Source: an uncultured Dehalococcoidales bacterium
GTDB lineage: Bacteria; Chloroflexota; Dehalococcoidia; GIF9; AB-539-J10
Direction of reading: 5' to 3'
Assembly: GCA_964557455.1 (NCBI GenBank)
Contig: CAZLAL010000090.1
Span: 1 to 47,604, forward strand
Length of the DNA: 47,604 bases
This document shows positions 10,971 through 45,946 of the stretch, piece after piece. The notes under the pieces are model-generated. The model had not been told where the DNA came from and searched no databases. It was given only the letters and a program-made list of their open reading frames with translations. Both the position numbers and the translations under genes were made by a program. Within the stretch, counting starts at the first letter, position 1. The number at the start of each line of letters is the position of its first letter.

Positions 10971-10982
10971 GTGCTTTCTGTA

Positions 10983-11259: not shown

Positions 11260-11293
11260 TCTGTCCTTACAGGCGAGAGAGTGCGACAGAATA

Positions 11294-11325: not shown

Positions 11326-11334
11326 GCCTTTGAG

Positions 11335-23300: not shown

Positions 23301-24396
23301 CCCTCTCGTGTCTCAAGTCGAGTGGGATATTGCTACCAAAATACACTTACGTTTACCCGTGTGCCACATTTCTCAAATGGCCACCTTAACTCGTGGTGAA
23401 ATGAATCAGACTACTTTTGCAGAGTTTATAACCCGGAGCTCGCGACACCATGAGATGATTAAAGGCGTAGAAATCGACCGTTATGCCAAGCATTGGTATC
23501 TCAGCCAAGGAGAAAAGGAGTGGTTTAATGAGCAACTATACTACCAGAAAACAAAGAATCCCAAGATTATTCCTAATTTCCGTATTGGAATTCAGCGCAT
23601 TACCGGAATAGACGAAGCAGTAAGGCTGAGAGCCACCTTTTTTGACGAACGTGTTTATTTTGCCGATTCGACTAACTCGATAGAAAGTGAAGATGTAACG
23701 AATCTATATTTTTTACTTGCGCTGATAAACTCACGACTCTTCAATTGGCGTTTCAAGTTGACAAGTACTAACAACAATGTTTCTACTAATGAATTGGAGC
23801 GTTTGCCCATCCGGCTTATTCACCTTAATACCCCCGAAAGAGAACGCAAGCAGTTGCTGAATCAAGCTAAAAGGTTATATCAAGAGCACATGGATAGCAA
23901 ATATTGGGATAGAATCCTCACATTTGTGGTCGGACTTTTGCCTCTCAGAGAGGATGGCAAACCAGATACGGAGCATGAGAAATCAGATGTGGTGCATGAC
24001 CTCTTGGCTTTCCTTGCTGGGGAAATGATGCGCCTTAATAAGGAAAAGCAGTCCAGCATTAAGGCATTCTTATCATGGCTGGAGAAGGAAATACTAAAAA
24101 GTTCTGTCGACGACCAGAAGAACAAGACGAAGATAAAGGACTTTCACAACAACACCTTTGAAGACTTGCTGGATGTGCTCAAAAAGAACAACGTTGTTAA
24201 GGACCCGTGCCCATCTGATGTCCGGGATACCATTGCCAGCGAATTTTCGTCTGCCATAAAAGCTCTGACTCCACTCAAGACTCGCATTAAAGCAACTGAT
24301 GACCTTATTGACCAGATAGTTTACAGACTCTACGGGCTTTCCGATGCCGAGATAGCTATCGTGGAAAGGCAGCCAAGTCATAGCAAGCCAGCTTAG
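20341..24396 (+). CDS. type IIG (Eco57I/MmeI-like) restriction-modification fusion: N-terminal PD-(D/E)xK nuclease, N6-adenine methyltransferase and C-terminal specificity region
   Basis: Nuclease candidates RPDYALF...IGIADAKYWE. SAM motif I VLDPAMGSGHFL. FHWELEFPEVF...GFDAVIGNPPYDV (motif IV). C-terminal TRD-like region, and the LIDQIVYRLYGLSDAEIAIVE tail typical of this class. An alternative start is ATG 20374. Confidence 0.85.
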   Translation: MIAKPLHGLCRMFEEKKQGLPDQPSPPFQNRGLFSDHFLQARLPEWKEWKVDAELVPFRESLQSLYNSKKSILPYLNEAQTELEFVQPVLYLLGYANSYIVQAPTKVGQHTNRPDYALFPDIKTKNKAYQKLEQNDYSLCIGIADAKYWERELDLTKSSDRDTFTNQNPSFQIAAYLTGTKQNWGILTNGRLWRLYNSKSHLPLGNYYQVDLVQLLEEAPVEIFKYFYVLFCKQALLQVEGKSLLDRILEGSEEYTVELEADIKDRAYDVVEFLCRGFAADFPHERLADAALKDIYDNSLTLLYRLLFVFYAEARELLPLTTNASYRENYSLRKLTHDIDEIFKKGYELSTSSTQYYHYVSNLFRLINNGDPKLGVPEYNGGLFDPIEHPFLEKQVISDAYLVRAIYQLARITDKKLKREVAVDYNTLSERHLGSIYEGLLEFKPVIAPHDLVIIKDKGSIKYAPANKHPGKKVAYTKDELYLANDKGERKASGSYYTPEYIVNYIVENTLDPLVAEAHEKVKTLKPEVAKVITEWQILKEQKQGLEPTEKYERKIAEESERLLEPYLALKVLDPAMGSGHFLARATDFLAEAIATDPDIKSPLELAEESELTYYRRRVVESCIYGVDLNPLAVELAKLTLWLTTMAKSKPLSFLNHHLRVGNSLIGARVGDLDEIPKAKGKKKAIDLSRASVQLGLFQIVFNQKLYDLLQNRALIAKLPTETLEDVHNKQKWEEVFGHDVLRFRMLADVWTSTSFGNEVAWDAYNTLVEKLQSPDPEWEELTQKKYVQRALESSKERRFFHWELEFPEVFYDEQGNRKNSAGFDAVIGNPPYDVLEKERLGTEDPHAELAIYLESEAIYHPALGGKVNLFRPFLIQDYQLLRDGGLVGKIIPLAIVNDYSCARTRAHLLIKSSVCRLECFPQKDDPKDRVFEDAKLSTCVIIFGKPGPTSHFNMRVHPGKHFTESPKEACISLQEIKAIDPDIFPIPLVSQVEWDIATKIHLRLPVCHISQMATLTRGEMNQTTFAEFITRSSRHHEMIKGVEIDRYAKHWYLSQGEKEWFNEQLYYQKTKNPKIIPNFRIGIQRITGIDEAVRLRATFFDERVYFADSTNSIESEDVTNLYFLLALINSRLFNWRFKLTSTNNNVSTNELERLPIRLIHLNTPERERKQLLNQAKRLYQEHMDSKYWDRILTFVVGLLPLREDGKPDTEHEKSDVVHDLLAFLAGEMMRLNKEKQSSIKAFLSWLEKEILKSSVDDQKNKTKIKDFHNNTFEDLLDVLKKNNVVKDPCPSDVRDTIASEFSSAIKALTPLKTRIKATDDLIDQIVYRLYGLSDAEIAIVERQPSHSKPA

Positions 24397-26510: not shown

Positions 26511-26730
26511 CGCTTTAATACACTATTATAGACCTCTAGGGTTTTCTGAGATGCTGGATTTCGTGAAAGTCTCTCTGCAGTCTCTCGGGCACGCTCAGCC
26601 GTAGCCTTTCTAAGTCCGGCCGATTTAATACAGTATTATAGACCTCCAAGGTTTTCTGAGCTACCTGATCCCATGAGAATTTTTCTGCGGTTTCCCTAGC
26701 ACGCTCACCCATGGTCTTTCTAAGTCCAGC
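26511..26730. repeat. tandem direct duplication, 2 x 110 bp, 85/110 identical
   Basis: 26511-26620 and 26621-26730 align without gaps (my count: 85 of 110 matches). The unit is the 3' end of the GT4 gene. Confidence 0.85.
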
Positions 26731-27899: not shown

Positions 27900-28406
27900 C
27901 CGCCGCTAAATGGCGCTTGCCATCTGGAACTATAAATATTATACCACAATGGACACGGTGTGCATAGAAACTTACTCTATGTCAGCTGCTGCGCAAGGGG
28001 TCGAGTCTAAACAAAGGGTGCAAGCTCCAAAGTAACGAATACAATTCACATTGAGATGAACAAAAAGCCATAAGGTGTAATATTGGCCTCCCGAGCAGAA
28101 GAATAGCACGTACTCTCTTGAGGTTCACCTAATCACTTACTGGCTAACCGCCGCAATTCCGATCAGCCCTGCTATGCCAGTAAACGTCACGCTTTCACTA
28201 ACAGCCAGTTCGAACCACTTCTTACATAAGCAACCCGACGAAAACGGTATAGGCAATGCCGACCGAGTTCTGAATACTACATCGGCAGTAATCGAAATCT
28301 TGACGGGAGCCCCGAAGGGGCAAGACAAGCCCAGCAAGGCTATAACAATACAGCAGGTCGGAAAGGTTGCTTTCATTAGCCCTGATAAACGCGTCATAGT
28401 AAGTAA

Positions 28407-28432
28407 GCTAGCTAGCTAGCTAGCTAGCTAGC
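28407..28432. repeat. (GCTA)6.5 perfect tetranucleotide repeat, fully self-complementary
   Basis: GCTAGCTAGCTAGCTAGCTAGCTAGC, flanked by TAAGTAA on the left and by CATAGT on both sides (28395-28400 and 28436-28441). Confidence 0.95.
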
Positions 28433-28518
28433 ATGCATAGTCAGTATGCCTCTTCAACTCCAGAACCTTATTATATGCTGTCTCCGTCGGAATCAACCTT
28501 GTGTCATTCTTACCCGAT

Positions 28519-32186: not shown

Positions 32187-32575
32187 CATGAGGATTGTTA
32201 TGTGTGATTAGCAGCGATACTTGTCATCTGTCAAATAGGGGAACTATTCTGACCTCTACAATCTGGCGTTTTGTTACGCTTGTGATAAGAGTCAAATCCT
32301 GCGTCATAGGTTGCTCAACCGTCAGATGAAAGTTTAGGAGACCCTCAAACTTCACGAAGCGAGTAATTCACAACTCCTTCTGGAGAGGTTTGGCTGGTGC
32401 TATAATTACGTTGAGCACATCAGTGAAAACAGCTATTCTAGTTTGCTGTAGCTTTGGTTTGGCCTTATTAGCCTTGTTAGGTTCATCATATACCCGTGGC
32501 GGGCGCACGCCTGACGTAATCAAGTTGGAGATACTAAGTAAAGCCTGATAGCCCTTTAAGGAGCTGTGAGGACAT

Positions 32576-35500
32576 ATGACTTACAACCGTTTGATTTTGG
32601 ATGGTTACGGGAGTGAGGTACAGGAGCAGTTAGCTTCTCTAATTGCTGAAGCAAAAAACGACAACCTGCTTGCTCCGGTAACAGTCGTCGTACCCTCCAT
32701 GTACACTGGTCTGTCGGTGCGGCGCAGTCTGGGAAAACAGCGAGGCCTAGTAAACGTACGCTTCATGGTCCTACCCAGACTCACCGAGTACCTGGGAGCA
32801 CCAGCACTAACCAGACAGGGTAAATCACCTCTCACGCCAACAATGAAGCTGGTCGCAGTTAGGCACTTTGCCAGCGAGATGGCAAACAGGGAACCGCTTG
32901 GCGCAATATCCAAGCATCCCCCGCTTCATGGTTATCTGGTAAATAACTTCAATGAGCTTGCCATGCTGTCGGAAAAGCAGTTGTCGTGGCTGCAAGCAAA
33001 AACCCCGGTACTGAACCAGGTCGTTGAGTGGTATCACATGTACCGAGAGCTCACGCAGCCTTACTACGACCGTGAGGAGCTTGCCCACTCCGCTGCTATA
33101 TCAGTTGACAACGGCGATGCTGAAAGCGTGCTGAAAGACCTCGGCTTCATTATCTTTTACCTGGTTACAGGTTTTTCGCGGGGCGAACTGGCTTTCGTAT
33201 CCAGTCTTGGGGTGCGCAAATGCTGCGCCGTAATTCTTGGCCTTACCGGAGAAGAAGAAGTTGATGCCGAGAGTCACAGACTGGTTTCGCGATTGGAACC
33301 AGTACAGGGAAAGGCTGCAAGTACTATACCCGCTCCAAAGAGCTATGCAGCCGACCATATCACAATTGCTTCAGACTCTAACGAAGAGGTGCGCTGGGCA
33401 GTTCGACATATCGCACAATGTGCGGAGAACGGTGTCCGGTTTCACCGCATGGCCCTACTGTATCGTAACGCTAGTCCTTATGCAGAATTAATCAAGAGCT
33501 ATCTCTACCTGGCACAGATTCCTGTTGCCGGTCCCGACCCTGTACCTCTCCGGGATTCGGCAGCAGGGAAAATAGCTCTCTATCTCATCGATGTATTTGT
33601 GTCTGATTTTGCCCGGGAGAGTGTTATGCGGTGGATATCGGAAGCACCAGTTTATACAGGAGAAAATACAGAGTCCCCCTCAAGGGAAGCTGCGCTGTGG
33701 GAGGAGGTATCCGGCAGAGCGGGAATAATCAGGGGTGCTGGACAGTGGAGCAATCGTCTAGAGCGCTTCTGCACAGGCATAGAACAGAAGCTAAGAAGCG
33801 AAGAACCACGTGAAGAAGACGAGGAAACTGTGACCACCAGCCCCGATGAGGATTGTGCTAAGGCGGGGATGCGGCTCAAGTCGTTTGTCGAAAGGTTGTC
33901 AGAAAACCCTCCACCGACTGACGAAAGCTCATGGAAAGACTACTCGCAGTGGGCATCCCGGATGATGAAGCAATACTCTCACCTGGATACATGGCCCGAA
34001 GCGCAGATATTGAGTTACGAACGAGTGACTGCAGTGTTGCAGGAATTGGGTACACTGGATTCTATCGAGCCCGGCGGTACTAACCTGGGCGGTTTTCGCC
34101 AGATGCTTGATGATTGCCTGAAGATGAGCTCGGGACGATTAGGGACTGTTGGAGAAGGAGTCTTCGTAGGTCCACTGGCATCTGCACAGGGCATGGAGTT
34201 TGACATAGTTCACATTCTGGGTATGGTCGGCGGAGCATTTCCTCCCAAACTCCATGATGACGCCATTATTCCAGATCAGTTACGTGAAGAACTGGGCGAC
34301 AATAGCCCGCTGGCGCTACGTGACCAGAGGCGTATAGATGAGCGCCGACTCTTTCGAGCAGCCCTCGCTTCGGGACAGAAGAGGATCCTGTCATATCCCC
34401 ACTCCGACGGAGACGGTAAAAGGCAGTGTTACCCTTCACCCTGGCTCATGAGCGAGGCTGAAATCCTGCACAGTAAATACAAGCAAATAGAAGCATCGGA
34501 AAGTGAAGCTTACACACCCATTCGTTGTGTAGAGTTAGAAGGGATGGCTGCCGAGGAGTGGATATCAGTTATTCACTCCATTCATGGCAGCGTGCTGTCG
34601 CTGGGTGGGCTCGTGGCAGCGGATATTCATGATTATGATATACACAGTCTGGCCAAATGGCATGACTCGGGTTACCGTGTTGACAGGCACTTTCTCATGA
34701 GAGAGCGCAGCATTGCCCATCGGGCACTCATGACTGAAAGAGCGTCTAGGAGTACAGCCTTCACCGCCTGGGATGGAAACGTCACCTCTCTTGCGGGCAG
34801 AAGCCGAAGACTTGGCATGCCAGGTAAGACAGCACACTCACCGACGAGGCTTGAGCTCTGGGCGAAATGCCCCTTCCGTTATTACCTGAAGCATGTTCTT
34901 GAGGTGCCGGTGCTTGAACGCCCAGAGGAAATCCTCACCATATCTCCCCTGGATCGTGGGTCTCTGGTACACGGAATACTGGAGAGATTTGTGAAAACCT
35001 TGAAGGAAAGCGGGCAGATGCCTGGCTATGGAGAACCCTGGGATTCGAACCACCAAGCACTGCTCATGCAAATTGCAGAAGAGGAATTTGCCAAGACCGA
35101 ATCGCTTGGCTTGACGGGGAGGCCTCTTCTCTGGAATGTAGTTATGAGTGAGATACGAGATGACCTATCTCTATGTTTGAAGAAGGACAGCGAATTACGT
35201 GCCCAGACAATGACACGGCCTGTAGAAGTTGAATGGCGGTTTGGTTTTGGGGAAGCGGGTCAGTGTCCTCCCGTAACACTCGAAATCGGCAGAGGGCAGC
35301 AAATCATGTTCAGGGGGATTATCGATCGGCTGGACAGCGATGAATCAGGCACAAGGCTTTTTATAGTGGACTATAAAACCGGCAGCTCTTACGCTTATCG
35401 TGATATGAGAGATGACCCGCTGGGAGCGGGAACTCACCTTCAATTACCGGTGTATGCTCTCGCGGCTCGTAGTGCATTCGGGCAGGAAAGTAAGGTTCAG

Positions 35501-35800
35501 GCCGGTTACTGGTTTATCTCTGCCCGGGCTGGTTTTGATACCAAGGGGATGGTCTTTTCCGAAGAACTGGAGCGTGATTTCGTGAACATGGTGCGTCTGA
35601 TTGTGTCCGGCATAGAGGGTGGCCTTTTCCCTGCCAATCCCGGAAGCGGCGGCGCAGGATTCAATAATTGCGCCTACTGTGAGTACGCACGTATCTGCCC
35701 GGCTGATATAGATATGGTGTGGGAGAGGAAATCTCAGAACCCCGAACTTGCTTCGTACTTAAGTATGATTACGGGAACAAGAACAGAGGAGATCGAATGA
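32576..35800 (+). CDS. AddB/RexB-like helicase-nuclease subunit: degenerate helicase fold without Walker A, C-terminal PD-(D/E)xK nuclease with an Fe-S cysteine cluster
   Basis: 1074 aa. The N-terminus VTVVVPSMYTG has no GxGKT. GMEFDIVHILGMVGGAFP and RRLFRAALASGQKRILSYP are AddB-type motifs. Nuclease blocks LFIVDYKTGS and HLQLPVYALA. Cysteines: CPFRYY...CAYCEYARIC. Confidence 0.85.
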   Translation: MTYNRLILDGYGSEVQEQLASLIAEAKNDNLLAPVTVVVPSMYTGLSVRRSLGKQRGLVNVRFMVLPRLTEYLGAPALTRQGKSPLTPTMKLVAVRHFASEMANREPLGAISKHPPLHGYLVNNFNELAMLSEKQLSWLQAKTPVLNQVVEWYHMYRELTQPYYDREELAHSAAISVDNGDAESVLKDLGFIIFYLVTGFSRGELAFVSSLGVRKCCAVILGLTGEEEVDAESHRLVSRLEPVQGKAASTIPAPKSYAADHITIASDSNEEVRWAVRHIAQCAENGVRFHRMALLYRNASPYAELIKSYLYLAQIPVAGPDPVPLRDSAAGKIALYLIDVFVSDFARESVMRWISEAPVYTGENTESPSREAALWEEVSGRAGIIRGAGQWSNRLERFCTGIEQKLRSEEPREEDEETVTTSPDEDCAKAGMRLKSFVERLSENPPPTDESSWKDYSQWASRMMKQYSHLDTWPEAQILSYERVTAVLQELGTLDSIEPGGTNLGGFRQMLDDCLKMSSGRLGTVGEGVFVGPLASAQGMEFDIVHILGMVGGAFPPKLHDDAIIPDQLREELGDNSPLALRDQRRIDERRLFRAALASGQKRILSYPHSDGDGKRQCYPSPWLMSEAEILHSKYKQIEASESEAYTPIRCVELEGMAAEEWISVIHSIHGSVLSLGGLVAADIHDYDIHSLAKWHDSGYRVDRHFLMRERSIAHRALMTERASRSTAFTAWDGNVTSLAGRSRRLGMPGKTAHSPTRLELWAKCPFRYYLKHVLEVPVLERPEEILTISPLDRGSLVHGILERFVKTLKESGQMPGYGEPWDSNHQALLMQIAEEEFAKTESLGLTGRPLLWNVVMSEIRDDLSLCLKKDSELRAQTMTRPVEVEWRFGFGEAGQCPPVTLEIGRGQQIMFRGIIDRLDSDESGTRLFIVDYKTGSSYAYRDMRDDPLGAGTHLQLPVYALAARSAFGQESKVQAGYWFISARAGFDTKGMVFSEELERDFVNMVRLIVSGIEGGLFPANPGSGGAGFNNCAYCEYARICPADIDMVWERKSQNPELASYLSMITGTRTEEIE

Positions 35801-38800
35801 GCCAGGAATTTGTTCCCTCCGACCAGAAACACAGGATACGCGTAGAGAACGAGCTGGACACTACCTTCTTCGTGGAGGCAGGTGCCGGCACCGGGAAAAC
35901 ACGGGAACTTGTGCAGCGCATTACCAACCTGATAGTCTGCGGAGTAACACAAATAGACCATATCGCGGCCATCACCTTTACAGAGGCAGCTGCTGCTGAA
36001 CTGAAAGACAGAGTTCGTACGGACCTTGAAAGGTGTGCTACCGACCGGACGCTGGATGGTGAAAAGATAGCAAGGTGTCGTGCTGCTCTAACCCGTTTTG
36101 ATGATGCCAGCATTCAGACACTGCACAGTTTTGCAGCATCTCTTCTGCGGGAGAGACCGTTTGAGGCAGGGCTGCCGCCCAACTTCGAGGTTGTTGCACA
36201 AATGGAGGCTGGTATCGACTTCGAGCGAAACTGGCAGGAATGGGGGGACGGGGCAATGGAGAGAAAGGAAACGGCCTCCCATTTGCTCACTGCCATGACC
36301 TTGGGCCTCAGGATGAATGACCTCAAGACAGCCGCAAGGCTGCTTCATGAGAACTACGATATGATGCCTGATCGGTTTGAACCCGTTCCTCCACCATCGC
36401 CCAGGATAGCACAGGCTGTCGTATCAGAAGCCAAACATATCGAGCTGTTAATGGAGCTGGCCAATGAAGGCTTTAATGATACTCTTGCTGCCCATGCACA
36501 AAGGGTGGTCGACCTGGCACGCACTCTGAGTTCCATGAATTATAGTGGTAACGCCGCGCTTTCGCTCCTCGCGGGCTTTGGTAAGCTGTCCTGCAAGGCT
36601 GGTCGCAAACAAGACTGGGCGGATGTAAAAGCCGGTGTGAATGGATGCACCGTGCTCAAACAGCTGCTGGAGAAACTCGAGGCAATGAAATGCGAGGAGC
36701 TTGAAGCTGTTCGCCGTGCTGCCCTGATGCCGCTCCTTGAGGACCTGAGGAGCTCTCTGCTGAACTGGGTTGAACAACGTCGCAGCGACAGCAAGGTTGA
36801 TTTCCACGACCTGCTGGTGCGAACCAGGGATATGCTGCGTGATGTGCCGGACGTAAGGGAGCACTTCCAGAAACACTTCACCCACATATTGATTGACGAG
36901 TTCCAGGACACTGATCCCATCCAGGCGGAGATTGCCTTCTTTCTGGCTGCAGACCAGAAAGCGATGGGCCGTAGCGCTCTTACTGAGAAAGATTGGAGGA
37001 AGCTTGTAACCACCCCTGGCAAGCTGTTTATGGTGGGAGACCCCAAACAATCTATTTACCGTTTCCGGAGAGCAGATATCGCCACAGTGCAGGACGTAGG
37101 TGAGATTCCTGGAACGGACAACGTACCATTGGAACAGAATTTCCGCTCTCAGGAGCCGGTGATTGCCTGGGTTAATGCGGTATTTGGCAGGTGGATGGGC
37201 GACGGCAAGCCTCACGTTCAGGCAACTTATGCCAAACTGTCGGCGCGATGGAACGACAAAGGTGCTGTACCTCCGATGGGAGTGCACCGCTTTGGAGAGG
37301 CTGTGGATGAGGCGGCAGCGCAGCTCAGGAAATACGAGGCATCTTCCATTGCCAATGTTCTCTACGTTATCAAGAAGAGGCAGTGGCAGGTTAGAAATGC
37401 CGTCACAAATACTCTGCATCCGGCACGCTACTGTGACATCTGTGTACTCATGCCTACACGCACCGTATTACCCTACATAGAACGTGCTCTTGACGAAGCT
37501 AATATCCCCTATCGCATTGAAAGCGAGTCCCTTATTTTTGGGACACAGGATGTCCGTGAGCTTCTCAGCTGCCTGCGCGCCATTGATTCTCCTGCCGACA
37601 GGGTGGCACTGGTAGCCGCCCTTCGTTCAACCGCCTTTGGATGCAACGATGTCGAGTTAGTGGAATATCTGGATTCTGGAGGCCTTCTTGACTACACGAG
37701 CCCTGGCAAGGCTGATGGACCGGTGAGCGAGGCTATGCAGGTACTGGCACGATACAACGAGATGCGCACTTGGGTACCCATCGACCAGTTAATCGAGATG
37801 TTCATCCGAGAGAGGCGCCTCGCCGAGATAGCTTTCGGCAGGGCCAGGCCAAGAGAACGACTTCGCCGCCTTAAGATGGTGGCACAGCAAGCACGAGCGT
37901 TCTCCGAGATAGGAGAAAGATCGCTCCGAATCTTTGCCGACTGGATGGAGCAACAGATGGCCGAGGGCAGCCGCATGGTGGAAATCCCGGTACCGGAAGC
38001 TGATGAAGATGCAGTTCGTATTATGACAATTCATGCTGCCAAGGGATTGGAGTTCCCTATCGTTATACTGGCGGGAATTGGAGGCACTGGTGCAAGCCGC
38101 GGTAATCCCGTCATATTCGAACGAGATGGGGGTAGTGTTGAGGTAAGCTTGGGCATAGAGGGAAGGAAGTTTGTGACTTCAGGCTACGAAAGAGCACGTG
38201 AGCAGGAGAAGGAGATGGATGAGGCGGAGGCAGTCCGCCTGATGTATGTAGCTACCACCAGAGCCAGAGACCACCTGATGGTAAGTCTTTATCGAAAAGC
38301 CACTAAGTCGATGAGTAATGCTCTTGCGGCAGTCATCGAAAGGTTCGCCGGCGAAACTGGCTGTAAATGGGATGAAATTGACTGCTCACAGGTGGATACA
38401 GAGGAAATACGAGAGCGTGATACTGATGTTCCGAATGTGTTAGGTACTGAGGCTGATAGAGAGAAGTGGATAACTGACCGTGAGACGGTCTTAGAACAGG
38501 CCTCTAGGAAGCCAGCCATAGCGGTGACCGCGCTGGCTCACTTGGACAAGGAAGAACCTGAGCGGGGAGAAATTTACTATCGAAAGGGGCGAGGAGGTAC
38601 CAGTCTGGGTCGTGCTGTGCACAGTGTTCTGCAAAGTATTGACTTGGCTACTGGGAAAGATCTGGAAGAAATAGCCAGAGCCCAGGCTGCCGCCGAAGGA
38701 ATACATGACAAATGGAAGGAGGTGGCGGGATTGGTACGCCGCGGCTTGAATGCACAAGCAGTGAAGCGTGCAGTTGTTTCGAATAAGTATCATCGTGAAG

Positions 38801-39129
38801 TGTTTGTGAGCGTGCCATATGAAAACGTATTGGTCGAAGGCTTTATTGACCTCCTCTTTGAAGAAGACGGAGGCCTTGTAGTAGTGGATTACAAGACAGA
38901 CGTACTGGACAATGAAGAAGAGGAGATGAAAAGGCAAGATCGATACCAGCTGCAGGCTGGAACATATGCACTTACTATTGAAAAGGCTACTTCAAAGCCA
39001 GTGAAAGAGGTAGTGCTGCTGTTTCTTCGTTGTGGCAAGGAAATGATTGTTACGAATATTAAGTCTTTAACAGCCCAATCGCATCAACATATAGTGTCGA
39101 TTCTTAATGCTAAGGGAGGTAAATTATGA
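35797..39129 (+). CDS. AddA/RecB-like UvrD-family helicase with a C-terminal RecB nuclease domain
   Basis: 1110 aa from the ATG in an ATGA overlap with the upstream stop. Motifs: EAGAGTGKT, ILIDEFQDTDP, VGDPKQSIYRFRRA, NFRS, TIHAAKGLEFP and YVATTRARD. Nuclease: GFIDLLFEEDGGLVVVDYKTD and RYQLQAGTYAL. Confidence 0.9.
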   Translation: MSQEFVPSDQKHRIRVENELDTTFFVEAGAGTGKTRELVQRITNLIVCGVTQIDHIAAITFTEAAAAELKDRVRTDLERCATDRTLDGEKIARCRAALTRFDDASIQTLHSFAASLLRERPFEAGLPPNFEVVAQMEAGIDFERNWQEWGDGAMERKETASHLLTAMTLGLRMNDLKTAARLLHENYDMMPDRFEPVPPPSPRIAQAVVSEAKHIELLMELANEGFNDTLAAHAQRVVDLARTLSSMNYSGNAALSLLAGFGKLSCKAGRKQDWADVKAGVNGCTVLKQLLEKLEAMKCEELEAVRRAALMPLLEDLRSSLLNWVEQRRSDSKVDFHDLLVRTRDMLRDVPDVREHFQKHFTHILIDEFQDTDPIQAEIAFFLAADQKAMGRSALTEKDWRKLVTTPGKLFMVGDPKQSIYRFRRADIATVQDVGEIPGTDNVPLEQNFRSQEPVIAWVNAVFGRWMGDGKPHVQATYAKLSARWNDKGAVPPMGVHRFGEAVDEAAAQLRKYEASSIANVLYVIKKRQWQVRNAVTNTLHPARYCDICVLMPTRTVLPYIERALDEANIPYRIESESLIFGTQDVRELLSCLRAIDSPADRVALVAALRSTAFGCNDVELVEYLDSGGLLDYTSPGKADGPVSEAMQVLARYNEMRTWVPIDQLIEMFIRERRLAEIAFGRARPRERLRRLKMVAQQARAFSEIGERSLRIFADWMEQQMAEGSRMVEIPVPEADEDAVRIMTIHAAKGLEFPIVILAGIGGTGASRGNPVIFERDGGSVEVSLGIEGRKFVTSGYERAREQEKEMDEAEAVRLMYVATTRARDHLMVSLYRKATKSMSNALAAVIERFAGETGCKWDEIDCSQVDTEEIRERDTDVPNVLGTEADREKWITDRETVLEQASRKPAIAVTALAHLDKEEPERGEIYYRKGRGGTSLGRAVHSVLQSIDLATGKDLEEIARAQAAAEGIHDKWKEVAGLVRRGLNAQAVKRAVVSNKYHREVFVSVPYENVLVEGFIDLLFEEDGGLVVVDYKTDVLDNEEEEMKRQDRYQLQAGTYALTIEKATSKPVKEVVLLFLRCGKEMIVTNIKSLTAQSHQHIVSILNAKGGKL

Positions 39130-40256
39130 CAATCAAGATCCTGCATACAGCAGACTTACATTTGGGCATGAGATTTGCCAGTCGTGGCTATACTCCACAA
39201 CTACAGGAGAGCCTATCAAAGGCGCGTTTCGAAACACTTGATACGTTGATTAAGGTTGCCAACAAAGAGCAAAGCGACCTATTGGTCATTGCTGGTGATC
39301 TGTTTGACTCGCCCAGGGTGTCACGGGGAGATATTCTTAGAGCTGCTACCCTTCTGAAAGACTTTGAGGGTCGACTTATTCTGATCCTTCCAGGCAACCA
39401 CGACTATATTCAAAAAAGTGATGACCCGCTCTGGCCTAATTTCCTCAACAACACTAGCCAAAATACAATACTCCTCGGTGAACCCAAACCTTACGATCTT
39501 GGGCTGCATGGTCTTGACCTAGCCATTTACCCCGCACCATGCACGTCCAAGCACTCGAAGGCCAATGTAATAGGTTGGGTGCCCGAATACACGAAAGACA
39601 AAGAGACGAGCTTGACTGTGGGCATCGCACACGGCAGCCTGGAGGGGCTGTCGCCTGATTTCAAGCAGGATTACTATCCAATGTCGAAAAGGGAATTGCA
39701 GACAGCGGGCGTAGACCTCTGGCTCATGGGGCATACTCATACCCGCTACCCAAATGAAGACAAGGGAACACAAGCACGGATCTTTTTCCCTTCGACTCCT
39801 GAGCCGGACGGATTCGATTGCAGGCATCCCGGCTACGTGTGGTCTATAGAAATTGCTGAGAACAAATCCATACACTATCACTCGATTCAAACCGGGACCT
39901 ACCGGTTTTCTGATTTGGAGAGACAATTAGAGAATGAAGCTGACATAGAGAACATCAGAATCGAATTTCGTGGAATGAATGCTGAGAAAGACCTGGTGAG
40001 ACTAAGACTGAGAGGGAGAATTCAGAATGAGCTTTACGATGAACGAGAATCTTTGCTAGGCGAACTGGAGAAATCAGTTCTATATCTAGAGCCAGATACT
40101 TCCGAGCTATTCCGGCAAATCACATTGAAGGATATCGACCAGGAATTCACTTCCGGGTCGTTTCCACACAGGTTACTCACTACATTGGCCAAGAAGCATC
40201 CAGATCCGCTGCTGCTTCAAACCGCCTATGATCTGATACAGGAGGCTAGAAAATGA
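39126..40256 (+). CDS. SbcD/Mre11/YhaO-like metallophosphoesterase nuclease subunit
   Basis: 376 aa. Calcineurin-like motifs in order: ILHTADLHLG, VIAGDLFD, LPGNHD and LMGHTH. ATGA overlap with the upstream stop. Confidence 0.85.
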   Translation: MTIKILHTADLHLGMRFASRGYTPQLQESLSKARFETLDTLIKVANKEQSDLLVIAGDLFDSPRVSRGDILRAATLLKDFEGRLILILPGNHDYIQKSDDPLWPNFLNNTSQNTILLGEPKPYDLGLHGLDLAIYPAPCTSKHSKANVIGWVPEYTKDKETSLTVGIAHGSLEGLSPDFKQDYYPMSKRELQTAGVDLWLMGHTHTRYPNEDKGTQARIFFPSTPEPDGFDCRHPGYVWSIEIAENKSIHYHSIQTGTYRFSDLERQLENEADIENIRIEFRGMNAEKDLVRLRLRGRIQNELYDERESLLGELEKSVLYLEPDTSELFRQITLKDIDQEFTSGSFPHRLLTTLAKKHPDPLLLQTAYDLIQEARK

Positions 40257-42685
40257 TAATTAACAGCTTGAAACTCGATCCCTTTGCAGGCATTTCAAAG
40301 AAGCAGATAGATCTCGAGAAAGGTCTGAATGTTATTGTGGGTCCCAACGAGGCAGGCAAGAGCACCCTGCTGAATGCACTCAGGTTGGTTCTGTTTGTGC
40401 CGACAGACTGCGGCAAACGCATATTCAAGGAGGAGATTGCCGACTTCATGCCTCTGGCTGGAGGAGACACTATCAGGGTTGGTCTGGATTTCAGGATCGG
40501 AAAACACGACTATTCTGTGACGAAATCTTGGGGATATTCAAAGCAAGATTCTGAACTGAAATTACCGGGAGGAGGTCTGAAAACGAATGCCCAAGACGTT
40601 CAAGAGGAGCTGCAGAATCTACTGGTTCTCAGCAGGGGTACCTCCGATTCAGTGCTATTTGGCGCACAATCTAGACTTGGGCACACCTATGATTCTCTTG
40701 AGGAGGGTTCTTCGGCTATGCAAGACCTAGCCTCGATTATGAGAAAAACAATCTTCGAAACGGAAGGTGTGTCCATCGGGCAACTAGGTGATGCAATTGA
40801 CGATTCATTCTATGACTATTTCAGCCACTGGGATACAGAGCTTAAACGTCCAGAAGGTAATAGGCAAATTGATAATCCCTGGAAGAAAGAGGTGAGGAAA
40901 ATACTAACTGCATACTACAAGCTGGAAAGGCTGAAACAACAAATGCTGGATGTCCAAGAGCATGAAGACAAAATTGGTGAGCTGGTCCAGCTTGTGCAAG
41001 AACGCTCTACAGAGTTGCAGGAATTGCAGGCTTACCTTAAAGAGAACCAGAAAGCAGTTACTGATGCTAAACAGCGACAAATACTTGTCGCACAGCATGA
41101 TGCTCTAAGGATCAAGGAAAAGACACTGCTTGATGCATCTAAGCTTTGGCCAACGATTGTCGGTGAAAGAAACCGTATGCAAAACGATCTTAGAAAATTC
41201 AAGACGAAGCATAGGAACCTGGAGAAAGAAATGGACAAGGCGCAGGCCTACGAGGACAACAAGGCAAGGCTCGAAAAATATAAGCGGGCATCAAGGAAGA
41301 AAAACGAATTGGAGAGAAAGCAAAATGCCTTACTGAAAATGAAGGTAATCGAGGAAAAAGACTATAAAAAACTGGAGAAATTAAATGCTGAGTTGATGAA
41401 GCTAGAAACCAGTTTGCAGGCCGGTCAGCTTGCTCTCACTATGACCGCAAAGAAGGCGCTGAGTTTGAGGGTGTCAAAGGATTTTGAAAAAGAGACACAG
41501 CACAGGCTTGGGGCAAGGAGATCCCTTAAGCTATCTGCAGGAGGGCAAGTACAAATTGATCATGACGACTGGGCATTAAAGGTCAAATCCGGAGATATCG
41601 ATTTTGATGACCTGAAGAAATCCGTCGAGGATGTTTCCAGCAGGTATGAGGCATTACTAAGGCGCTTATGTGTTAGTGATTTTGATAGCGCTGGTAAGGC
41701 CTATGACTCATATCAAATTCAGCGCAATTTGGTTACCGGTTTGCAGGAGCGATTGGAGGAAATCCTCGATGGAGAAACATATGAAGAACTGGATAAATTA
41801 GCCAGAAAGGCTTCTCGCACAAAAGCCCCTTCTCGGACCTCTGGATCCATTGGTAAGGAACTAGGAGCCATAGTGAATGAAATATCTAATACTGAAAATG
41901 AGATAAAATCGCGCACACAAACATTATCTGGATTGGAGAGGAAATATGGTTCTCAGGATGAACTCCTAGAGTTGCTGGTCAACGAGCGAGCTGAACTGAA
42001 GCGGACCGAAATGGAGCTAAAGAAACTCAAACCGTTGCCGAAGTCAGTAGAGGGTCCTGATCAGTTCATTCTAGAATACGAAAAGAAACAGATCGCCGCA
42101 CAGAAAGAAGAGAGAGAAATAAATGGACTGCGAATAGAGAAAGCTCATAAGGAAGCACAGGCACCTACAGAAACTAGGGAGGAACTTCAGTCACAACTAA
42201 TACAAGCTGAGCTTGATTTCGCGAAGAGAGAAAGAGAGGGAGAAGCCATCTCGGAGATACGCGATACCTTTCGGAAGATTGAGGCGGAGATGGATTCACA
42301 AACTCTCGATCCATGGTTAGATGAGCTAGGGACAGTACTGGAGCCATTAACAGCAAATCGCTATAAGCAAATCGATCTGGGTGAAGGCGATTCGGGCAAG
42401 GCATTACGTGCAGATGGATTGGCTATCCCCTTCGTGCTACTTTCTATCGGCACCAAAGTAGGATTGGGATTAGCCCTGCGCCTTTCTATGGCCCGGTACT
42501 TCTTGAAGGACTCGGAAGGATTCTTGGTTCTGGATGATCCGCTTGTTGACATGGACCCAGACCGGCAAGGTGCTGCAGCTAAGATCATACAGAATTTCGC
42601 TGCGGAGAAACAGGTAATTGTTATGACATGTCACCCAAGTCACGCAGATTTGCTGGCAGGAAACACTATCAGGTTATTATTGTGA
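40253..42685 (+). CDS. SbcC/Rad50/YhaN-like ABC-type ATPase with a long coiled coil and no zinc hook
   Basis: 810 aa. Walker A GPNEAGKSTLLNAL, a ~500-aa heptad-rich K/E/L middle, signature-like LSIGTKVGLGLALRLS, Walker B GFLVLDDPLVDMD and H-loop MTCHPSH. The only cysteines are isolated (no CxxC). ATGA overlap with the upstream stop. Confidence 0.85.
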   Translation: MIINSLKLDPFAGISKKQIDLEKGLNVIVGPNEAGKSTLLNALRLVLFVPTDCGKRIFKEEIADFMPLAGGDTIRVGLDFRIGKHDYSVTKSWGYSKQDSELKLPGGGLKTNAQDVQEELQNLLVLSRGTSDSVLFGAQSRLGHTYDSLEEGSSAMQDLASIMRKTIFETEGVSIGQLGDAIDDSFYDYFSHWDTELKRPEGNRQIDNPWKKEVRKILTAYYKLERLKQQMLDVQEHEDKIGELVQLVQERSTELQELQAYLKENQKAVTDAKQRQILVAQHDALRIKEKTLLDASKLWPTIVGERNRMQNDLRKFKTKHRNLEKEMDKAQAYEDNKARLEKYKRASRKKNELERKQNALLKMKVIEEKDYKKLEKLNAELMKLETSLQAGQLALTMTAKKALSLRVSKDFEKETQHRLGARRSLKLSAGGQVQIDHDDWALKVKSGDIDFDDLKKSVEDVSSRYEALLRRLCVSDFDSAGKAYDSYQIQRNLVTGLQERLEEILDGETYEELDKLARKASRTKAPSRTSGSIGKELGAIVNEISNTENEIKSRTQTLSGLERKYGSQDELLELLVNERAELKRTEMELKKLKPLPKSVEGPDQFILEYEKKQIAAQKEEREINGLRIEKAHKEAQAPTETREELQSQLIQAELDFAKREREGEAISEIRDTFRKIEAEMDSQTLDPWLDELGTVLEPLTANRYKQIDLGEGDSGKALRADGLAIPFVLLSIGTKVGLGLALRLSMARYFLKDSEGFLVLDDPLVDMDPDRQGAAAKIIQNFAAEKQVIVMTCHPSHADLLAGNTIRLLL

Positions 42686-43046
42686 TGCTGGCTGAGCCTT
42701 CTCCTGTACCGCCGCTAATAAGGACGGAGTTACGCGTATGCTGTGATTGCAGGGCAACCTTCCCATTCTGATCATCGCGAGCGCTGCAAATGTGCATGGC
42801 GGTGTACATGCCTATCTCGCCAACATTGCCGAATCTGTTCCCAAGCATAGGGAAGCATCTCCTTAACTGCGATGATAGAGGGAAAGGTTTCTATCGGCAG
42901 GAGAATGGCTATGTAGGATAATTAGAGTCGCTTTTAGCGGCAGTGGCTGCCTAGGCAAGAAGGGCAAAGGGATGAAAGTTCGCAGGGCACCTCAAGGCGA
43001 GACCGTACAATAGCCTATGTTGTTGCACAAGAACTTGAAATGTTAC

Positions 43047-43637
43047 CTAAGCACGCGAGCCACCATTCGGTTGAATTCGAATTAGCCGAGCGATATAGAT
43101 TAACTTTCCTTTCGACTGCTGAAGTCTCTGAATGATGTTATCGAGAGTTCCAACTCGTTTTCCCTGTAAAGCTTCCATTTTCAACTCATCGATCGCAGCG
43201 ATTAGGCTCTCCAATGTAACCCATGTTCCTTCCGCCGGAATAGCGTTGTAGGGTGCCATCATTAATCTCTTGTCCAATGACACTGCCCATCTTGTTTCTC
43301 CGAATACTTGCGTCATACCATTGAAACCTGACAGCCCTGCACCCAAAGCAGCATACTTGTCCCTAGTTATCACCCCCGCAAGAATTGAATTCGCCGCAGT
43401 CACTGCCAGGCTGGCTCCTATGTTCTTCTTATCTCTCGTAAGCAGGGTGAATCCTCTTTGACGTGCTAAAGCCTCCCTTCGTTTTTTCAGAGAATGTTTC
43501 AGAAACTCCATCTTCAAGGACTCGGCTTCAAGGCGTAGGATTTCAATGCCTCTGCCGACACTCTGGCACGCGCTTTCAATATAGGCCAACTCATTTCTCA
43601 GGTCTGCAACAGCCTTTGCCCACCTATTATTTGACAT
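43047..43637 (-). CDS. hypothetical protein with a central Gly/Ala-rich hydrophobic segment
   Basis: 196 aa. Its ATG overlaps the upstream stop (TGATG), which suggests translational coupling. N-terminal coiled-coil-like helix, then IGASLAVTAANSILAGVI...AALGAGLSGFNG. No family recognised. Confidence 0.55.
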   Translation of the reverse strand: MSNNRWAKAVADLRNELAYIESACQSVGRGIEILRLEAESLKMEFLKHSLKKRREALARQRGFTLLTRDKKNIGASLAVTAANSILAGVITRDKYAALGAGLSGFNGMTQVFGETRWAVSLDKRLMMAPYNAIPAEGTWVTLESLIAAIDELKMEALQGKRVGTLDNIIQRLQQSKGKLIYIARLIRIQPNGGSRA

Positions 43638-44866
43638 CAATTTCTCCCAAGACTGTGTTGCACTTCCTCGATGAAGTTGCCCAAAGTCTTTCCAGATTCC
43701 TCACCTTTTTTTACTACTTGCCTCATCTCACCTATGGCCTCACCTGCCCTTAGAGCATCGGCCAACAAAGCACTGAGTTGGTCCTTAATATCGGCCACCT
43801 GTTGCTGTATCTGTGAAGCACCATCTTCTCCTGCGGCTCTTACTTTTTCCGATGTGTAGGAAATAATGCCGAGGATTTCACCTTCCAGAAGCCCCTTCTT
43901 CTTATCCAACTCAGCAATTTCGCCTGCCAAGACAGATTCCTTTTTGACCAGCCGGTTTACTTGTTCTACTTCCACCTTTCGCTGATTTTCAAGGCCGCAT
44001 ACCTCTTGAAAGAGGCCCAAGGCAGAAACGAACCTCTTCTTGAGCTCTTTACCGCTAATCCCTTCGTTCTTACTGGTTCTTTCGACGAAGTCTGTGATAC
44101 GGAGAAGGTCTTCATCGGACAAGCCAATGTCGTTGACCCGTTTTAGCGACTCTTCTCGACCACCGATCTCCGACGAGAGTTTGGTCCTTCTGCCCTGGAG
44201 CCCCTTTATTTCCCTGTTCAATCGCGATCCTTCCTCCTCCCTTTCCTTGATCCTTGACTTGAGTTCCGTTAGCTTTGCGGTCTGTATCTCAACAGTGTTC
44301 TCGAGCTTGTCCTTGGCTCTCTCCAGCGATTCAAGTTCTGAACGCAGTGACCCCACCGTTTCAATGAGCTCATTCTTATTATTGATGAGAGAGTCCACAT
44401 CCGCCTTAAGCTCATCCACTCCCTCTTTCAGCCTCACGTACTCCGCGGCCAGCGCGGCAAAAGGTTTCCCCTCACTTTTTTCTAGCTCATCAAATCTTAA
44501 TGCCGCTTCAATGAAATCTTTGGCTGGGAAGTCGACGGGAAGGAGTCTCTTGGTCAGTTCCGCCCACTTGTTCATTAATTCCGGTGTTACTTCCAGGGCC
44601 TGGAGCCTGTCAAATGATAAGATTCCCAGCAGCGCCTGAGATGGTTCCAAGCCTTTCTTTTTGAGCTCAAGGGAGAGGCGACGAAGGTCGTTCACCTGGT
44701 CAAATGAGCTACCGGGGATGGTAAGTTTACCGCATTCCAGTTCCTTCACGATGTTCACGACGCTGCCGTGCGACACCCCCGACCGATTCTCTATATCACT
44801 ATATAGATGACCTAAAATATAGTACTGCGCGACTTCTAGCTTCTTTGCTCTTGTTATTTCCTTCAT
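43637..44866 (-). CDS. hypothetical HTH protein with a long coiled coil
   Basis: 409 aa, with AGAGGT 5 nt upstream of the ATG. N-terminal HTH-like KKLEVAQYYILGHLYSDIENRSGVSHGSVVNIVKEL, then ~250 aa of heptad-rich sequence. Confidence 0.6.
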   Translation of the reverse strand: MKEITRAKKLEVAQYYILGHLYSDIENRSGVSHGSVVNIVKELECGKLTIPGSSFDQVNDLRRLSLELKKKGLEPSQALLGILSFDRLQALEVTPELMNKWAELTKRLLPVDFPAKDFIEAALRFDELEKSEGKPFAALAAEYVRLKEGVDELKADVDSLINNKNELIETVGSLRSELESLERAKDKLENTVEIQTAKLTELKSRIKEREEEGSRLNREIKGLQGRRTKLSSEIGGREESLKRVNDIGLSDEDLLRITDFVERTSKNEGISGKELKKRFVSALGLFQEVCGLENQRKVEVEQVNRLVKKESVLAGEIAELDKKKGLLEGEILGIISYTSEKVRAAGEDGASQIQQQVADIKDQLSALLADALRAGEAIGEMRQVVKKGEESGKTLGNFIEEVQHSLGRN

Positions 44867-45209: not shown

Positions 45210-45283
45210 GCCCCTGTAGCTCAGATGGATAGAGCAGCGGTTTCCTAAACCGCGTGTCGGGCGTTCGAGTCGCCCCAGGGGTA
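45210..45283 (+). tRNA. tRNA-Arg (anticodon CCT), CCA not encoded
   Basis: Acceptor GCCCCTG/CAGGGGT (G1:U72 wobble), D-arm GCTC..GAGC, anticodon arm GCGGT-TTCCTAA-ACCGC, T-arm GGGCG-TTCGAGT-CGCCC, discriminator A. Confidence 0.85.
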
Positions 45284-45307
45284 CTTTTGATATAATTACG
45301 CTGGTTT

Positions 45308-45384
45308 AGGGGTGTAGCTCAGTTGGCTAGAGCAGCGGTCTCCAAAACCGCAGGTCGCGGGTTCGAGTCCTGCCACCCCTGCCA
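45308..45384 (+). tRNA. tRNA-Trp (anticodon CCA), CCA encoded
   Basis: Acceptor AGGGGTG/CACCCCT, anticodon arm GCGGT-CTCCAAA-ACCGC, T-arm GCGGG-TTCGAGT-CCTGC, discriminator G, then CCA. Confidence 0.9.
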
Positions 45385-45434
45385 GAAAAGCAAGTTGATT
45401 TCCCTCAAAGATGAAGCTTTTCTGGAGCAATGAT

Positions 45435-45521
45435 GCCGAGGTGGTGGAATAGGCAGACACGCCATCTTGAGGGGGTGGTGGGCGAAAGCCCGTGGGAGTT
45501 CAAATCTCCCCCTCGGCACCA
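45435..45521 (+). tRNA. tRNA-Leu (anticodon GAG), long variable arm, CCA encoded
   Basis: Acceptor GCCGAGG/CCTCGGC, anticodon arm CCATC-TTGAGGG-GGTGG, a long variable arm, T-loop TTCAAAT, discriminator A, then CCA. Confidence 0.85.
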
Positions 45522-45641
45522 GGATTGCAGCCGGAAGGCGTTTTCAAAATCTGCCTGCGCGTCTTATTGGGATTGGGTGAATGAGTCCTTAACTTCTAAG
45601 ATGGGACCTGTGGAAAAGCCAGACTATTGCCCAACACTAGC

Positions 45642-45670
45642 TTGCGAGAACCAGGCAAAGACGGTAAAAT
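45642..45670 (+). promoter_or_regulatory. internal promoter candidate TTGCGA-17-TAAAAT for the Gly-Cys-Leu tRNAs
   Basis: TTGCGA at 45642-45647, a 17-nt spacer, and TAAAAT at 45665-45670. tRNA-Gly begins 10 nt downstream, inside the 158-bp gap in the array. Confidence 0.4.
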
Positions 45671-45679
45671 CTGTTTAAA

Positions 45680-45754
45680 GCGGAAGTAGTTCAGCGGTAG
45701 AATGCTTCCTTGCCAAGGAAGAGGTCGCGGGTTCGAATCCCGTCTTCCGCTCCA
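45680..45754 (+). tRNA. tRNA-Gly (anticodon GCC), CCA encoded
   Basis: Acceptor GCGGAAG/CTTCCGC, anticodon arm CTTCC-TTGCCAA-GGAAG, T-arm GCGGG-TTCGAAT-CCCGT, discriminator T, then CCA. Confidence 0.9.
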
Positions 45755-45771
45755 TTGAATTTGCGAGTTGT

Positions 45772-45844
45772 GGCGGTGTAGCCAAGAGGTTAAGGCAGGG
45801 GTCTGCAAAACCCCGATGCGGCGGTTCGAATCCGCCCGCCGCCT
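45772..45844 (+). tRNA. tRNA-Cys (anticodon GCA), CCA not encoded
   Basis: Acceptor GGCGGTG/CGCCGCC, anticodon arm GGGGT-CTGCAAA-ACCCC, T-arm GGCGG-TTCGAAT-CCGCC, and discriminator U, as expected for Cys. Confidence 0.9.
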
Positions 45845-45860
45845 TTTTCCCAACCATCAG

Positions 45861-45946
45861 GCCGAGGTGGCGGAATGGTAGACGCGGCGGACTTAAAATC
45901 CGCTTCCCGCAAAGGAGTGTGGGTTCGAGTCCCTCCCTCGGCACCA
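45861..45946 (+). tRNA. tRNA-Leu (anticodon TAA), long variable arm, CCA encoded
   Basis: Acceptor GCCGAGG/CCTCGGC, anticodon arm GCGGA-CTTAAAA-TCCGC, a long variable arm, T-loop TTCGAGT, discriminator A, then CCA. Confidence 0.9.

Follow-up and report, generated by a model that had tools for sequence, protein, structure and literature searches.

A four-gene addB-addA operon with an Mre11/Rad50-like gene pair in an uncultured Dehalococcoidales bacterium and its probable role in double-strand break repair

Introduction

Does an operon that encodes AddB-, AddA-, Mre11- and Rad50-like proteins in the vicinity of an integrative element belong to the DNA repair equipment of its host, or is it cargo of the element? 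The question is raised by a contig of an uncultured Dehalococcoidales bacterium (CAZLAL010000090.1, assembly GCA_964557455.1), whose 47,604 nucleotides were analysed as one stretch and are referred to as the window; all positions are 1-based over this stretch. The operon genes, called g1 to g4 in their order, lie on the plus strand between positions 32576 and 42685. A sequence-only reading of the window had described them as translationally coupled genes inside a putative island and had proposed a mobile, self-contained machine for the surveillance of DNA ends, possibly acting in defence. Here, the locus is compared with homologous loci that were retrieved for this purpose and carry L-numbers (L003, L098 and so on). 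The comparison suggests that the four genes are probably the double-strand break (DSB) repair operon of this lineage, a Chloroflexota version of the Bacillus addB-addA-sbcD-sbcC operon in which a YhaO/YhaN-like pair takes the place of SbcCD.

Gene content of the operon

The list of open reading frames (ORFs) contains all four genes in intact form, and at each of the three junctions the stop codon of one gene overlaps the start codon of the next in an ATGA sequence (35797-35800, 39126-39129 and 40253-40256), exactly as had been noted from the sequence. These overlapping junctions are kept in the relatives, and the catalytic residues of the operon proteins are invariant over relatives with 28-90% identity. 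The ATGA overlaps imply that translation of the g1-g4 subunits is probably coupled.

The gene g1 (32576-35800, plus strand) encodes an AddB-type protein of 1074 amino acids, in which a degenerate helicase-like N-terminal part is combined with a C-terminal PD-(D/E)xK nuclease and four Fe-S cysteines. Pfam assigns it to PDDEXK_1 (2.8e-40) with an additional weak match to UvrD_C, and its sole sequence match in the Protein Data Bank (PDB) is AddB of B. subtilis (3u44_B). The motifs on which the AddB assignment had originally been based are all present: CPFRYY (C765), VDYKTG (residues 931-936) and CAYCEYARIC (C1032, C1035 and C1041). A Walker A motif, which B. subtilis AddB possesses, is absent from g1. 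The four cysteines flank the nuclease in the pattern C765...C1032-x2-C1035-x5-C1041 and are predicted to be the ligands of an Fe-S cluster; together with IDRLD and DYKTG, they are kept in 16 relatives of g1 down to 24% identity.

The second gene, g2 (35797-39129, plus strand), codes for 1110 amino acids from the ATG at 35797; the product is an AddA-type helicase of superfamily 1A (SF1A, UvrD-like) that carries a RecB-type nuclease at its C terminus. Its description as a complete helicase plus nuclease agrees with the Pfam matches to UvrD-helicase, UvrD_C and PDDEXK_1. The best PDB match is AddA (3u44_A, 3e-46), and further matches were obtained with RecB (6e-23) and with the UvrD/REP helicase chain 7sjr_B (5e-14), which we take to be AdnB. 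The Walker A motif (G29-T35), D367/E368 and D1018/D1031/K1033 are invariant or nearly so in 20 homologues. In all relatives in which the upstream ORF was examined, addB is located directly upstream of addA, as in the window, where the overlap agrees with co-transcription of the two genes. We regard g1 and g2 as an AddB/AddA-type helicase-nuclease. The pair stays far below the cut-offs of the curated AddAB equivalog models for Gram-positive bacteria (addA_Gpos, 322.5 bits with a cut-off of 707.65; addB_Gpos, 93.8 with 903.7) and alpha-proteobacteria (addA_alphas, 224.9 with 860.75; addB_alphas, 41.7 with 486.5), and represents a separate AddAB clade outside the curated subfamilies; members of this clade were encountered in Chloroflexota, Acidimicrobiia and Dormibacteria.

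The third gene, g3 (39126-40256, plus strand), encodes an Mre11/SbcD-like metallophosphoesterase of 376 amino acids, the obligate partner of g4. The Pfam match is Metallophos (1.6e-16), the PDB matches are Mre11 and SbcD, and all five phosphoesterase motifs (I-V: DLHLG, GDLFD, GNHD, AHGS and GHTH) that the sequence-only reading had recognized are present. With 55.8 bits, g3 remains below the cut-off of 77.65 of the sbcd model TIGR00619. The residues D10, H12, D58, N91, H92, H169, H203 and H205 are invariant in eight bacterial and archaeal members, and so is a family-specific block, TPEPDGFDCRH.

The 810-amino acid product of the last gene, g4 (40253-42685, plus strand), belongs to the YhaN/SbcE superfamily; it is a Rad50/SMC-like ABC ATPase that lacks the hook and has a beta-rich domain at its apex. 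Pfam matches were obtained with AAA_27, AAA_23, AAA_15 and SMC_N, and the N-terminal AAA_27 domain, which is of the YhaN type, reaches 36.9 bits with a Pfam cut-off of 22. The protein carries the motifs GPNEAGKST and LVLDDP, its only cysteines are located at positions 53, 473 and 793, and a CxxC motif is absent from it. The same holds for the family: a central CxxC at the hook position is missing in 22 of 22 members, g4 included, and in one member a CGDC sequence is located N-terminally, at residue 82. Among the best 25 of 33 NCBIfam matches for g4 there was no sbcc model. An hhalign comparison of the g4 family with a YhaN-like set resulted in a probability of 99.95 (E value 8.7e-38, 744 columns, 18% identity), and direct sequence matches of g4 to proteins named YhaN cover the N-terminal 13-20% only. 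The assignment of g4 to YhaN/SbcE, which had been guessed correctly before, applies at the superfamily level. In the AlphaFold2 (AF2) model of g4, with a predicted local distance difference test (pLDDT) score of 80.9, the head is formed by residues 1-215 and 704-807, and a domain of six beta strands (393-445) sits at the apex of two long helical arms (216-389 and 451-700). The central domain contains the family-conserved residues A429, G431, H437 and G447. A Foldseek search with this model returned Rad50 as the top match, ahead of LmuB and JetC.

A positive control was provided by L066 of Priestia endophytica, which has the gene order addB-addA-sbcD-sbcC. Its SbcD and SbcC scored 240 bits (above 77.65) and 262 bits (below 478.5), respectively, with the sbcd and sbcc subfamily models and 605 and 1029 bits with the Bacillus equivalogs; the control SbcC has 1127 amino acids with a CPVC hook at position 538. 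Judged by sequence, g3-g4 is not a canonical SbcCD complex, and g4 is not SbcC.

Distribution and inheritance of the two gene pairs

The homologues of AddA form more than 100 clusters, in which identity falls smoothly from 88% to 45%. Nearly all clusters with an organism name belong to Chloroflexota, Dehalococcoidia or SAR202, with contigs of up to 4.7 Mb. Complete chromosomes of Caldilineaceae, Dehalococcoidia and Chloroflexia contain overlapping addB-addA genes among metabolic and housekeeping genes, and no Mre11/Rad50-like neighbour of the pair was found in these complete, distant Chloroflexota chromosomes. Because distant chromosomes hold the pair among ordinary metabolic genes, addB-addA looks ancestral and vertically inherited in the Chloroflexota. 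A scan of Genome Taxonomy Database (GTDB) genomes with degenerate, generic patterns taken from the AddA alignment gave a best identity of 43% among the matches listed and thus covers distant contexts only; a metagenome scan yielded four loci.

The relatives of g4 are distributed differently. Their identities range from 71-89% in Chloroflexota-like contigs over 55% and 46% to 30-40%, and the named relatives in the last range are from Calditrichia, Atribacterota, Clostridia, Spirochaetaceae and the archaeon Methanolobus. At an E value of 1e-30 or below, the family comprises 546 representative clusters (50% identity), and nearly all listed full-length members have 800-815 amino acids. Stand-alone, overlapping g3-g4 pairs are present in Methanolobus and in metagenome contigs, where the g3-like partner is 44-49% identical and the neighbours are non-defence genes. 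A g3-type gene overlaps the g4-type gene in all sampled loci except L010, in which the phosphoesterase gene is apparently split and displaced. In Methanolobus (L008, 14696-21330), the g3-g4 homologues are part of a nuclease-rich cluster, which additionally encodes a second pair of a Metallophos (436 amino acids) and an AAA_27 protein (1279 amino acids), a beta-CASP-like protein and a PIN_4 protein.

The complete four-gene operon was found only where the identity of AddA is at least about 81%, namely in L003, L004, L005, L098 and L099. Further away, addBA occurs without g3-g4 (L100, AddA 77%), beside a convergent, non-orthologous Metallophos and AAA_27 pair (L101, 73%), or with another non-orthologous pair of this kind 3 kb downstream (L006, 70%); in L007 (56%), no Mre11/Rad50-like pair is located by addBA, and the right flank consists of ordinary core genes. 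Along the operon, the identities of g1 to g4 are mosaic (86/89/83/78% in L098 and 81/81/90/77% in L099), which points to recombination within the operon. From this distribution, we infer that g3-g4, a pair of patchy occurrence, was probably acquired as a module behind addA within a narrow subclade; the operon halves differ in their history.

No system composition in PADLOC-DB v2 matches the operon. The matches were generic ones to ABC ATPases, UvrD and Cas4-like nucleases, the best being LmuB for g4 (2.9e-19) and GajB for g2 (4e-37). In tblastn searches, g4 found only sequences of sphingomonad plasmids with 21-42% coverage and about 25% identity and nothing in phages; viral contigs contained neither a member of the g4 family nor an AddA relative with more than 27% identity. 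A literature search revealed no description of an AddAB and SbcCD-like defence system. With generic PADLOC matches and no close plasmid, phage or viral copies, the assignment to a defence system was rejected, and the proposed self-contained mobile machine is not supported: AddBA looks vertically inherited, and the four genes are not one travelling unit beyond the closest relatives.

Proposed function of the operon

The interpretation as a DSB-repair operon is based on four lines of evidence: the vertical pattern and core context of AddBA, its repeated and independent linkage to different Mre11/Rad50-like pairs (L006, L101 and L066 of Priestia), the non-defence context of the stand-alone g3-g4 pairs, and the lack of defence-system matches and of close plasmid, phage or viral copies. 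The Chloroflexota clade links its end-resection enzyme to two non-orthologous Mre11/Rad50-like families besides g3-g4, and this linkage to different families is good comparative evidence that AddAB and Mre11/Rad50-like machines cooperate.

As to complex formation, substrates, order of action and a housekeeping role, we infer the following scheme. The proteins g3 and g4 would form an ATP-driven complex of the Mre11/Rad50 type, which recognizes DNA ends and cleaves hairpin-capped or protein-blocked termini. Dimerization or tethering of g4 would presumably be achieved by the beta-rich apex domain in place of a zinc hook. The cleaned end would then pass to g1-g2, an enzyme with one active SF1A motor (g2) and two RecB-family nuclease sites (g1 and g2), of which the g1 nuclease may be stabilized by the Fe-S cluster. 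This enzyme would unwind and degrade the duplex, thereby delivering a 3' tail to RecA, and the translational coupling would keep the production of the four subunits linked.

Genomic neighbourhood

The operon is preceded by a non-coding block of 312 bp (32264-32575, plus strand), which contains the extended -10 candidate TGCTATAAT at 32398-32406, followed by about 165 nt of untranslated leader. The candidate promoter, already pointed out in the sequence-only reading, is present and lies within a conserved block: 32264-32575 shares about 90% identity with L003 and L005, and the homology sets in sharply at 32264. The upstream block contains neither a conserved ORF nor traces of the exonuclease genes located before addB in L006, L100 and L101. 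The leader RNA has no Rfam match, and a structured leader RNA was rejected, as no Rfam family was found and the fold is no better than that of shuffled sequences (z = +1.18); promoter and terminator scans gave counts at chance level. Downstream, a conserved non-coding block (42686-43055, plus strand) ends in a degenerate copy of the junction motif described below. Homology to L003 runs to 43037, stopping where L003 has a perfect ACTTGTTTTGTTCAGCAAGT. An antisense ORF of 59 amino acids (42669-42848) is not conserved as a protein and was rejected as a gene, since it is broken in L003 and absent in L099.

The left part of an integrative element occupies positions 4458-11375 and holds a tRNA-Ala gene, recombinases, orf166, orf237, a DnaN-like clamp gene and a junction motif. 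The tRNA-Ala gene (4557-4632, plus strand) is overlapped by the ORF of a large serine recombinase (4458-6197, minus strand). Besides this enzyme, the element core encodes a Tyr recombinase (7364-8119), which is short and has a Zn ribbon, as well as orf166, orf237 and a DnaN-like clamp of divergent sequence (9697-10917). Elements in L102 and L103 share homology with positions 7328-8657 and 8686-11355 of the window, at 63-83% DNA identity depending on the block; these elements follow integrases at unrelated sites, in L103 beside rplM/rpsI. The core of the element family (window 4458-11375, L102 203-8712, L103 1771-10566) consists of integrase(s), a short Zn-ribbon Tyr recombinase, a 166-amino acid gene, a 237/243-amino acid gene and a DnaN-like clamp, and variable cargo follows; genes for 453 and 213 amino acids are optional. 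With more than 100 homologue clusters of the clamp at identities of at least 68%, the element family is widespread, and one IMG/VR contig (viral class) carries a clamp gene with 91% identity.

Homology to L102 and L099 ends at position 11355, and different cargo follows in each genome. An imperfect palindrome of 20-23 nt, ACTTGYTTTGTTCAGYAAGT(CAC), sits exactly at such breakpoints of homology between genomes. In the window, it is found as ACTTGCTTTGTTCAGCAAGTCAC at 11353-11375 on the minus strand and as a degenerate copy at the right end of the operon at about 43023-43055 on the plus strand; a perfect 20-mer copy in L003 (17234-17253) coincides exactly with the point at which operon homology ends on the right, and a third copy is located upstream in L098 (2159-2178). 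The motif has no match in viral contigs; it may be the site of a recombinase or no more than a conserved element between genes. In L099, the right end of the operon is joined directly to the end of the element core, and for this reason the window looks as if, relative to the L099 arrangement, about 31.7 kb had been inverted between two motif copies of opposite orientation. In L101, an orf237 homologue follows addA at a distance of 5 kb.

To the right of the operon lie orf197 and a gene for a coiled-coil protein of 409 amino acids (43047-44866, minus strand). The latter shares 26% identity over 294-413 amino acids with the 453-amino acid proteins of L102 and L103 (E values 1e-24 to 2e-28) and is a distant homologue of this element-family product. 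The 426- and 199-amino acid genes of L003, in contrast, are not homologous to the coiled-coil gene and orf197. Further to the right, at 45210-45946, six tRNA genes are clustered (Arg-CCT, Trp, Leu-GAG, Gly-GCC, Cys and Leu-TAA), and this cluster accounts for a 57-bp 'direct repeat' at 45215/45313 and for a 43-bp match to the unrelated contig L006. The candidate att repeats between which the operon had been placed, and for which no coordinates had been given, were not confirmed: direct and inverted repeat searches found only T-arm similarities (61-72%) between tRNA-Ala and the six-tRNA cluster, and att sites were rejected. That the operon lies in mobile DNA is nevertheless supported by the element core at tRNA-Ala and by the unrelated flanks. 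A gene described as TIR-like-TPR is indeed 516 bp away from the operon if the start of the JGI gene call is used; a TIR domain was found neither by Pfam nor by PADLOC.

Each relative has its own, unrelated flanks around the operon, and tblastx and blastp searches of the relatives' flanks against the window gave nothing except matches to the DnaN module. The flanking genes include those for type ISP and IIG restriction-modification (R-M) enzymes, Hypoth_Ymh, PrimPol, SIR2-TPR, nSTAND3, WYL, prokaryotic Argonaute (pAgo) and GmrSD/SNF2 fragments. In the segments L101 52-4822, L006 1693-6783 and L100 3018-5805, an exonuclease gene directly precedes addB, of the RNase_H_2 type in L101 and L006 and of the RNase_T/ExoX type in L100. 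Farther upstream, L101 and L006 contain a PafBC/BrxR-like regulator with a helix-turn-helix (HTH), WYL and WCX domain, L101 also a long pAgo and L006 an nSTAND3 ATPase, and L100 genes for a clamp-loader-like DNA_pol3_delta2 protein and AAA-SAP. We conclude that the operon lies at or inside a hotspot that is remodelled by integrative elements and defence genes, and the AddAB locus as such a hotspot calls for caution with defence assignments made there through 'guilt by association'.

Other features of the window include a 1351-amino acid type IIG R-M/DrmMI-like enzyme (20341-24396; Eco57I, N6_Mtase and TaqI_C; PADLOC DrmMI 1e-97), near which no further DISARM genes were seen. Directly after the element junction, a protein of 2088 amino acids with NosD/beta-helix, BNR and sortilin-VPS10 repeats is encoded on the minus strand (11509-17775); at the same position and also on the minus strand, L102 and L103 have a large, probably surface-protein gene (Glug/Flg_new_2; Peptidase_M10/CARDB). 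Two tandem copies of 110 nt (26511-26730, 77% identical) are located at the 3' end of a GT4 glycosyltransferase gene, and an (AGCT)n palindromic microsatellite at 28395-28448.

Alternative explanations

Several observations weigh against a DSB-repair operon of the host. In the window as in L099, the operon falls on the cargo side of the element junction, which it directly abuts in L099. Mobile or defence-type genes are among the visible neighbours in every relative with an AddA identity of at least 56%, a picture that would equally be expected of island cargo. The GC content at third codon positions (GC3) is 0.52-0.53 for g1-g2, below the 0.55-0.61 of the flanking core genes, and the value of 0.47 for g4 is cargo-like; in this comparison with core genes, which had been proposed before, the GC and GC3 values are intermediate and not decisive. 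In L095 (8743-12427), g3-g4 (86% and 71% identical) are preceded by the last 44 codons of addA only, and an HTH_17 gene of the excisionase type lies upstream of this remnant. L095 represents a natural deletion or replacement of addBA, and addBA can therefore be lost locally. The main alternative is that the operon is island cargo with an accessory role, a module carried by or co-inherited with DnaN-clamp integrative elements, which would degrade linear phage or plasmid DNA or back up an inhibited host enzyme. In its favour, addBA has the orf237/DnaN module as a neighbour in three genomes and in three orientations, homology to the relatives with a whole operon stops sharply outside the operon, a 20-nt motif is shared by its right boundary and the element junction, the flanks are rich in defence genes, g3-g4 is patchy across phyla, and the identities along the operon are incongruent in L098 and L099. 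However, most sampled elements of the family (L102 and L103) have no addBA within 10 kb, and the left homology boundary varies among relatives (32264, 32565, 32550 and 32659), unlike that of a defined cassette. AddA identity declines smoothly within one phylum with distant orthologues in core contexts, neither a PADLOC system nor plasmid, phage or viral copies were found, and stand-alone g3-g4 pairs occur in other phyla outside defence islands. We therefore consider the cargo explanation unlikely, although it deserves more weight than the other alternatives. A shade more doubtful is its specific form, in which the four genes would be cargo of a tRNA-targeting, DnaN-clamp element family with a serine and/or Zn-ribbon Tyr recombinase in Dehalococcoidia-like Chloroflexota, shuffled or inverted at the 20-35-nt motif and serving as a portable module of DNA-end destruction or processing for defence or element maintenance. 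If true, this would be a mobile system of AddAB and a hook-less Rad50/Mre11, hitherto undescribed.

It was also considered that the operon serves the element itself. It would then act in element replication or recombination together with the DnaN-like clamp and with the exonuclease and clamp-loader-like genes of the relatives, a role with a parallel in the Mre11/Rad50-like and RecB-like enzymes encoded by phages. In the window as well as in L099 and L101, the DnaN-like module is adjacent, and the genes directly upstream of addB fit this idea, i.e., those for DNA_pol3_delta2-like, AAA-SAP and RNase_T proteins in L100 and for RNase_H_2-type exonucleases in L006 and L101. However, the association is not shared by the element family in general, close relatives are absent from viral contigs and, to our knowledge, no large two-subunit enzyme of the AddAB type is known to act as a replication factor of elements, which makes such a role improbable. 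Even the rearrangement-prone region and the partial loss in L095 hardly speak for a decaying relic with functionless genes: the four ORFs are intact, their catalytic residues invariant and the stop/start overlaps kept in relatives, so that this explanation is very improbable indeed. A DSB-repair operon that is embedded in a region of high turnover thus remains the preferred reading.

Comparison with known systems

Hook-less coiled-coil SMC/ABC ATPases or UvrD-like helicases together with nucleases are also found in the defence systems Lamassu (LmuB) and Gabija (GajA/GajB), and LmuB structures are among the Foldseek matches of g4. However, the operon lacks an LmuA, LmuC or GajA (OLD/TOPRIM) partner, and the matches to LmuB and GajB are due to generic similarity of the ABC head and the UvrD core.

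A closer parallel to the second half of the operon is SbcE (YhaN) of B. subtilis, a hook-less protein with a distinct central domain, which has the SbcD-like SbcF (YhaO) as its partner and acts in DSB repair (PMC2811018). Like SbcE, g4 is a hook-less SMC/Rad50-like ATPase that is encoded beside an SbcD-like phosphoesterase; each of the two has a central domain of its own, and the head motifs GPNEAGKST, LSxGT, DDxLVxxDxxR and TCHP are common to g4 and YhaN-like proteins. Members of the g4 family are shorter, with about 810 amino acids compared to 930-1170 in the YhaN-like set, and the apex of g4 is a small six-strand beta domain in the model, whereas SbcE is described with a hydrophobic central domain. 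In Bacillus, moreover, yhaON is not fused to addAB. The 810-amino acid hook-less family with its beta apex, which spans bacteria and archaea and comprises about 550 clusters at 50% identity, appears to be uncharacterised and offers a tractable model for Rad50-type function without a zinc hook.

The operon as a whole is most similar to the addB-addA-sbcD-sbcC operon of B. subtilis (PMC1533848), and this likeness, which had been seen from the beginning, is supported by the control locus of Priestia endophytica. In both cases, AddB with an Fe-S nuclease, AddA with a UvrD motor and a RecB nuclease, an Mre11-like nuclease and a Rad50-like ATPase are encoded on one strand with overlapping or adjacent junctions. 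The last two genes of the window operon, however, are not SbcD and SbcC, as illustrated by the 810 amino acids of g4 without CxxC compared to the 1127 amino acids of the control SbcC. Thus, the Bacillus operon already shows the gene order and its logic, and SbcE is a precedent for the hook-less class of Rad50-like proteins, while the translational fusion of AddAB with a YhaON-like pair and the phylum of occurrence are new and extend the idea of an AddAB-SbcCD 'super-operon' beyond the Firmicutes.

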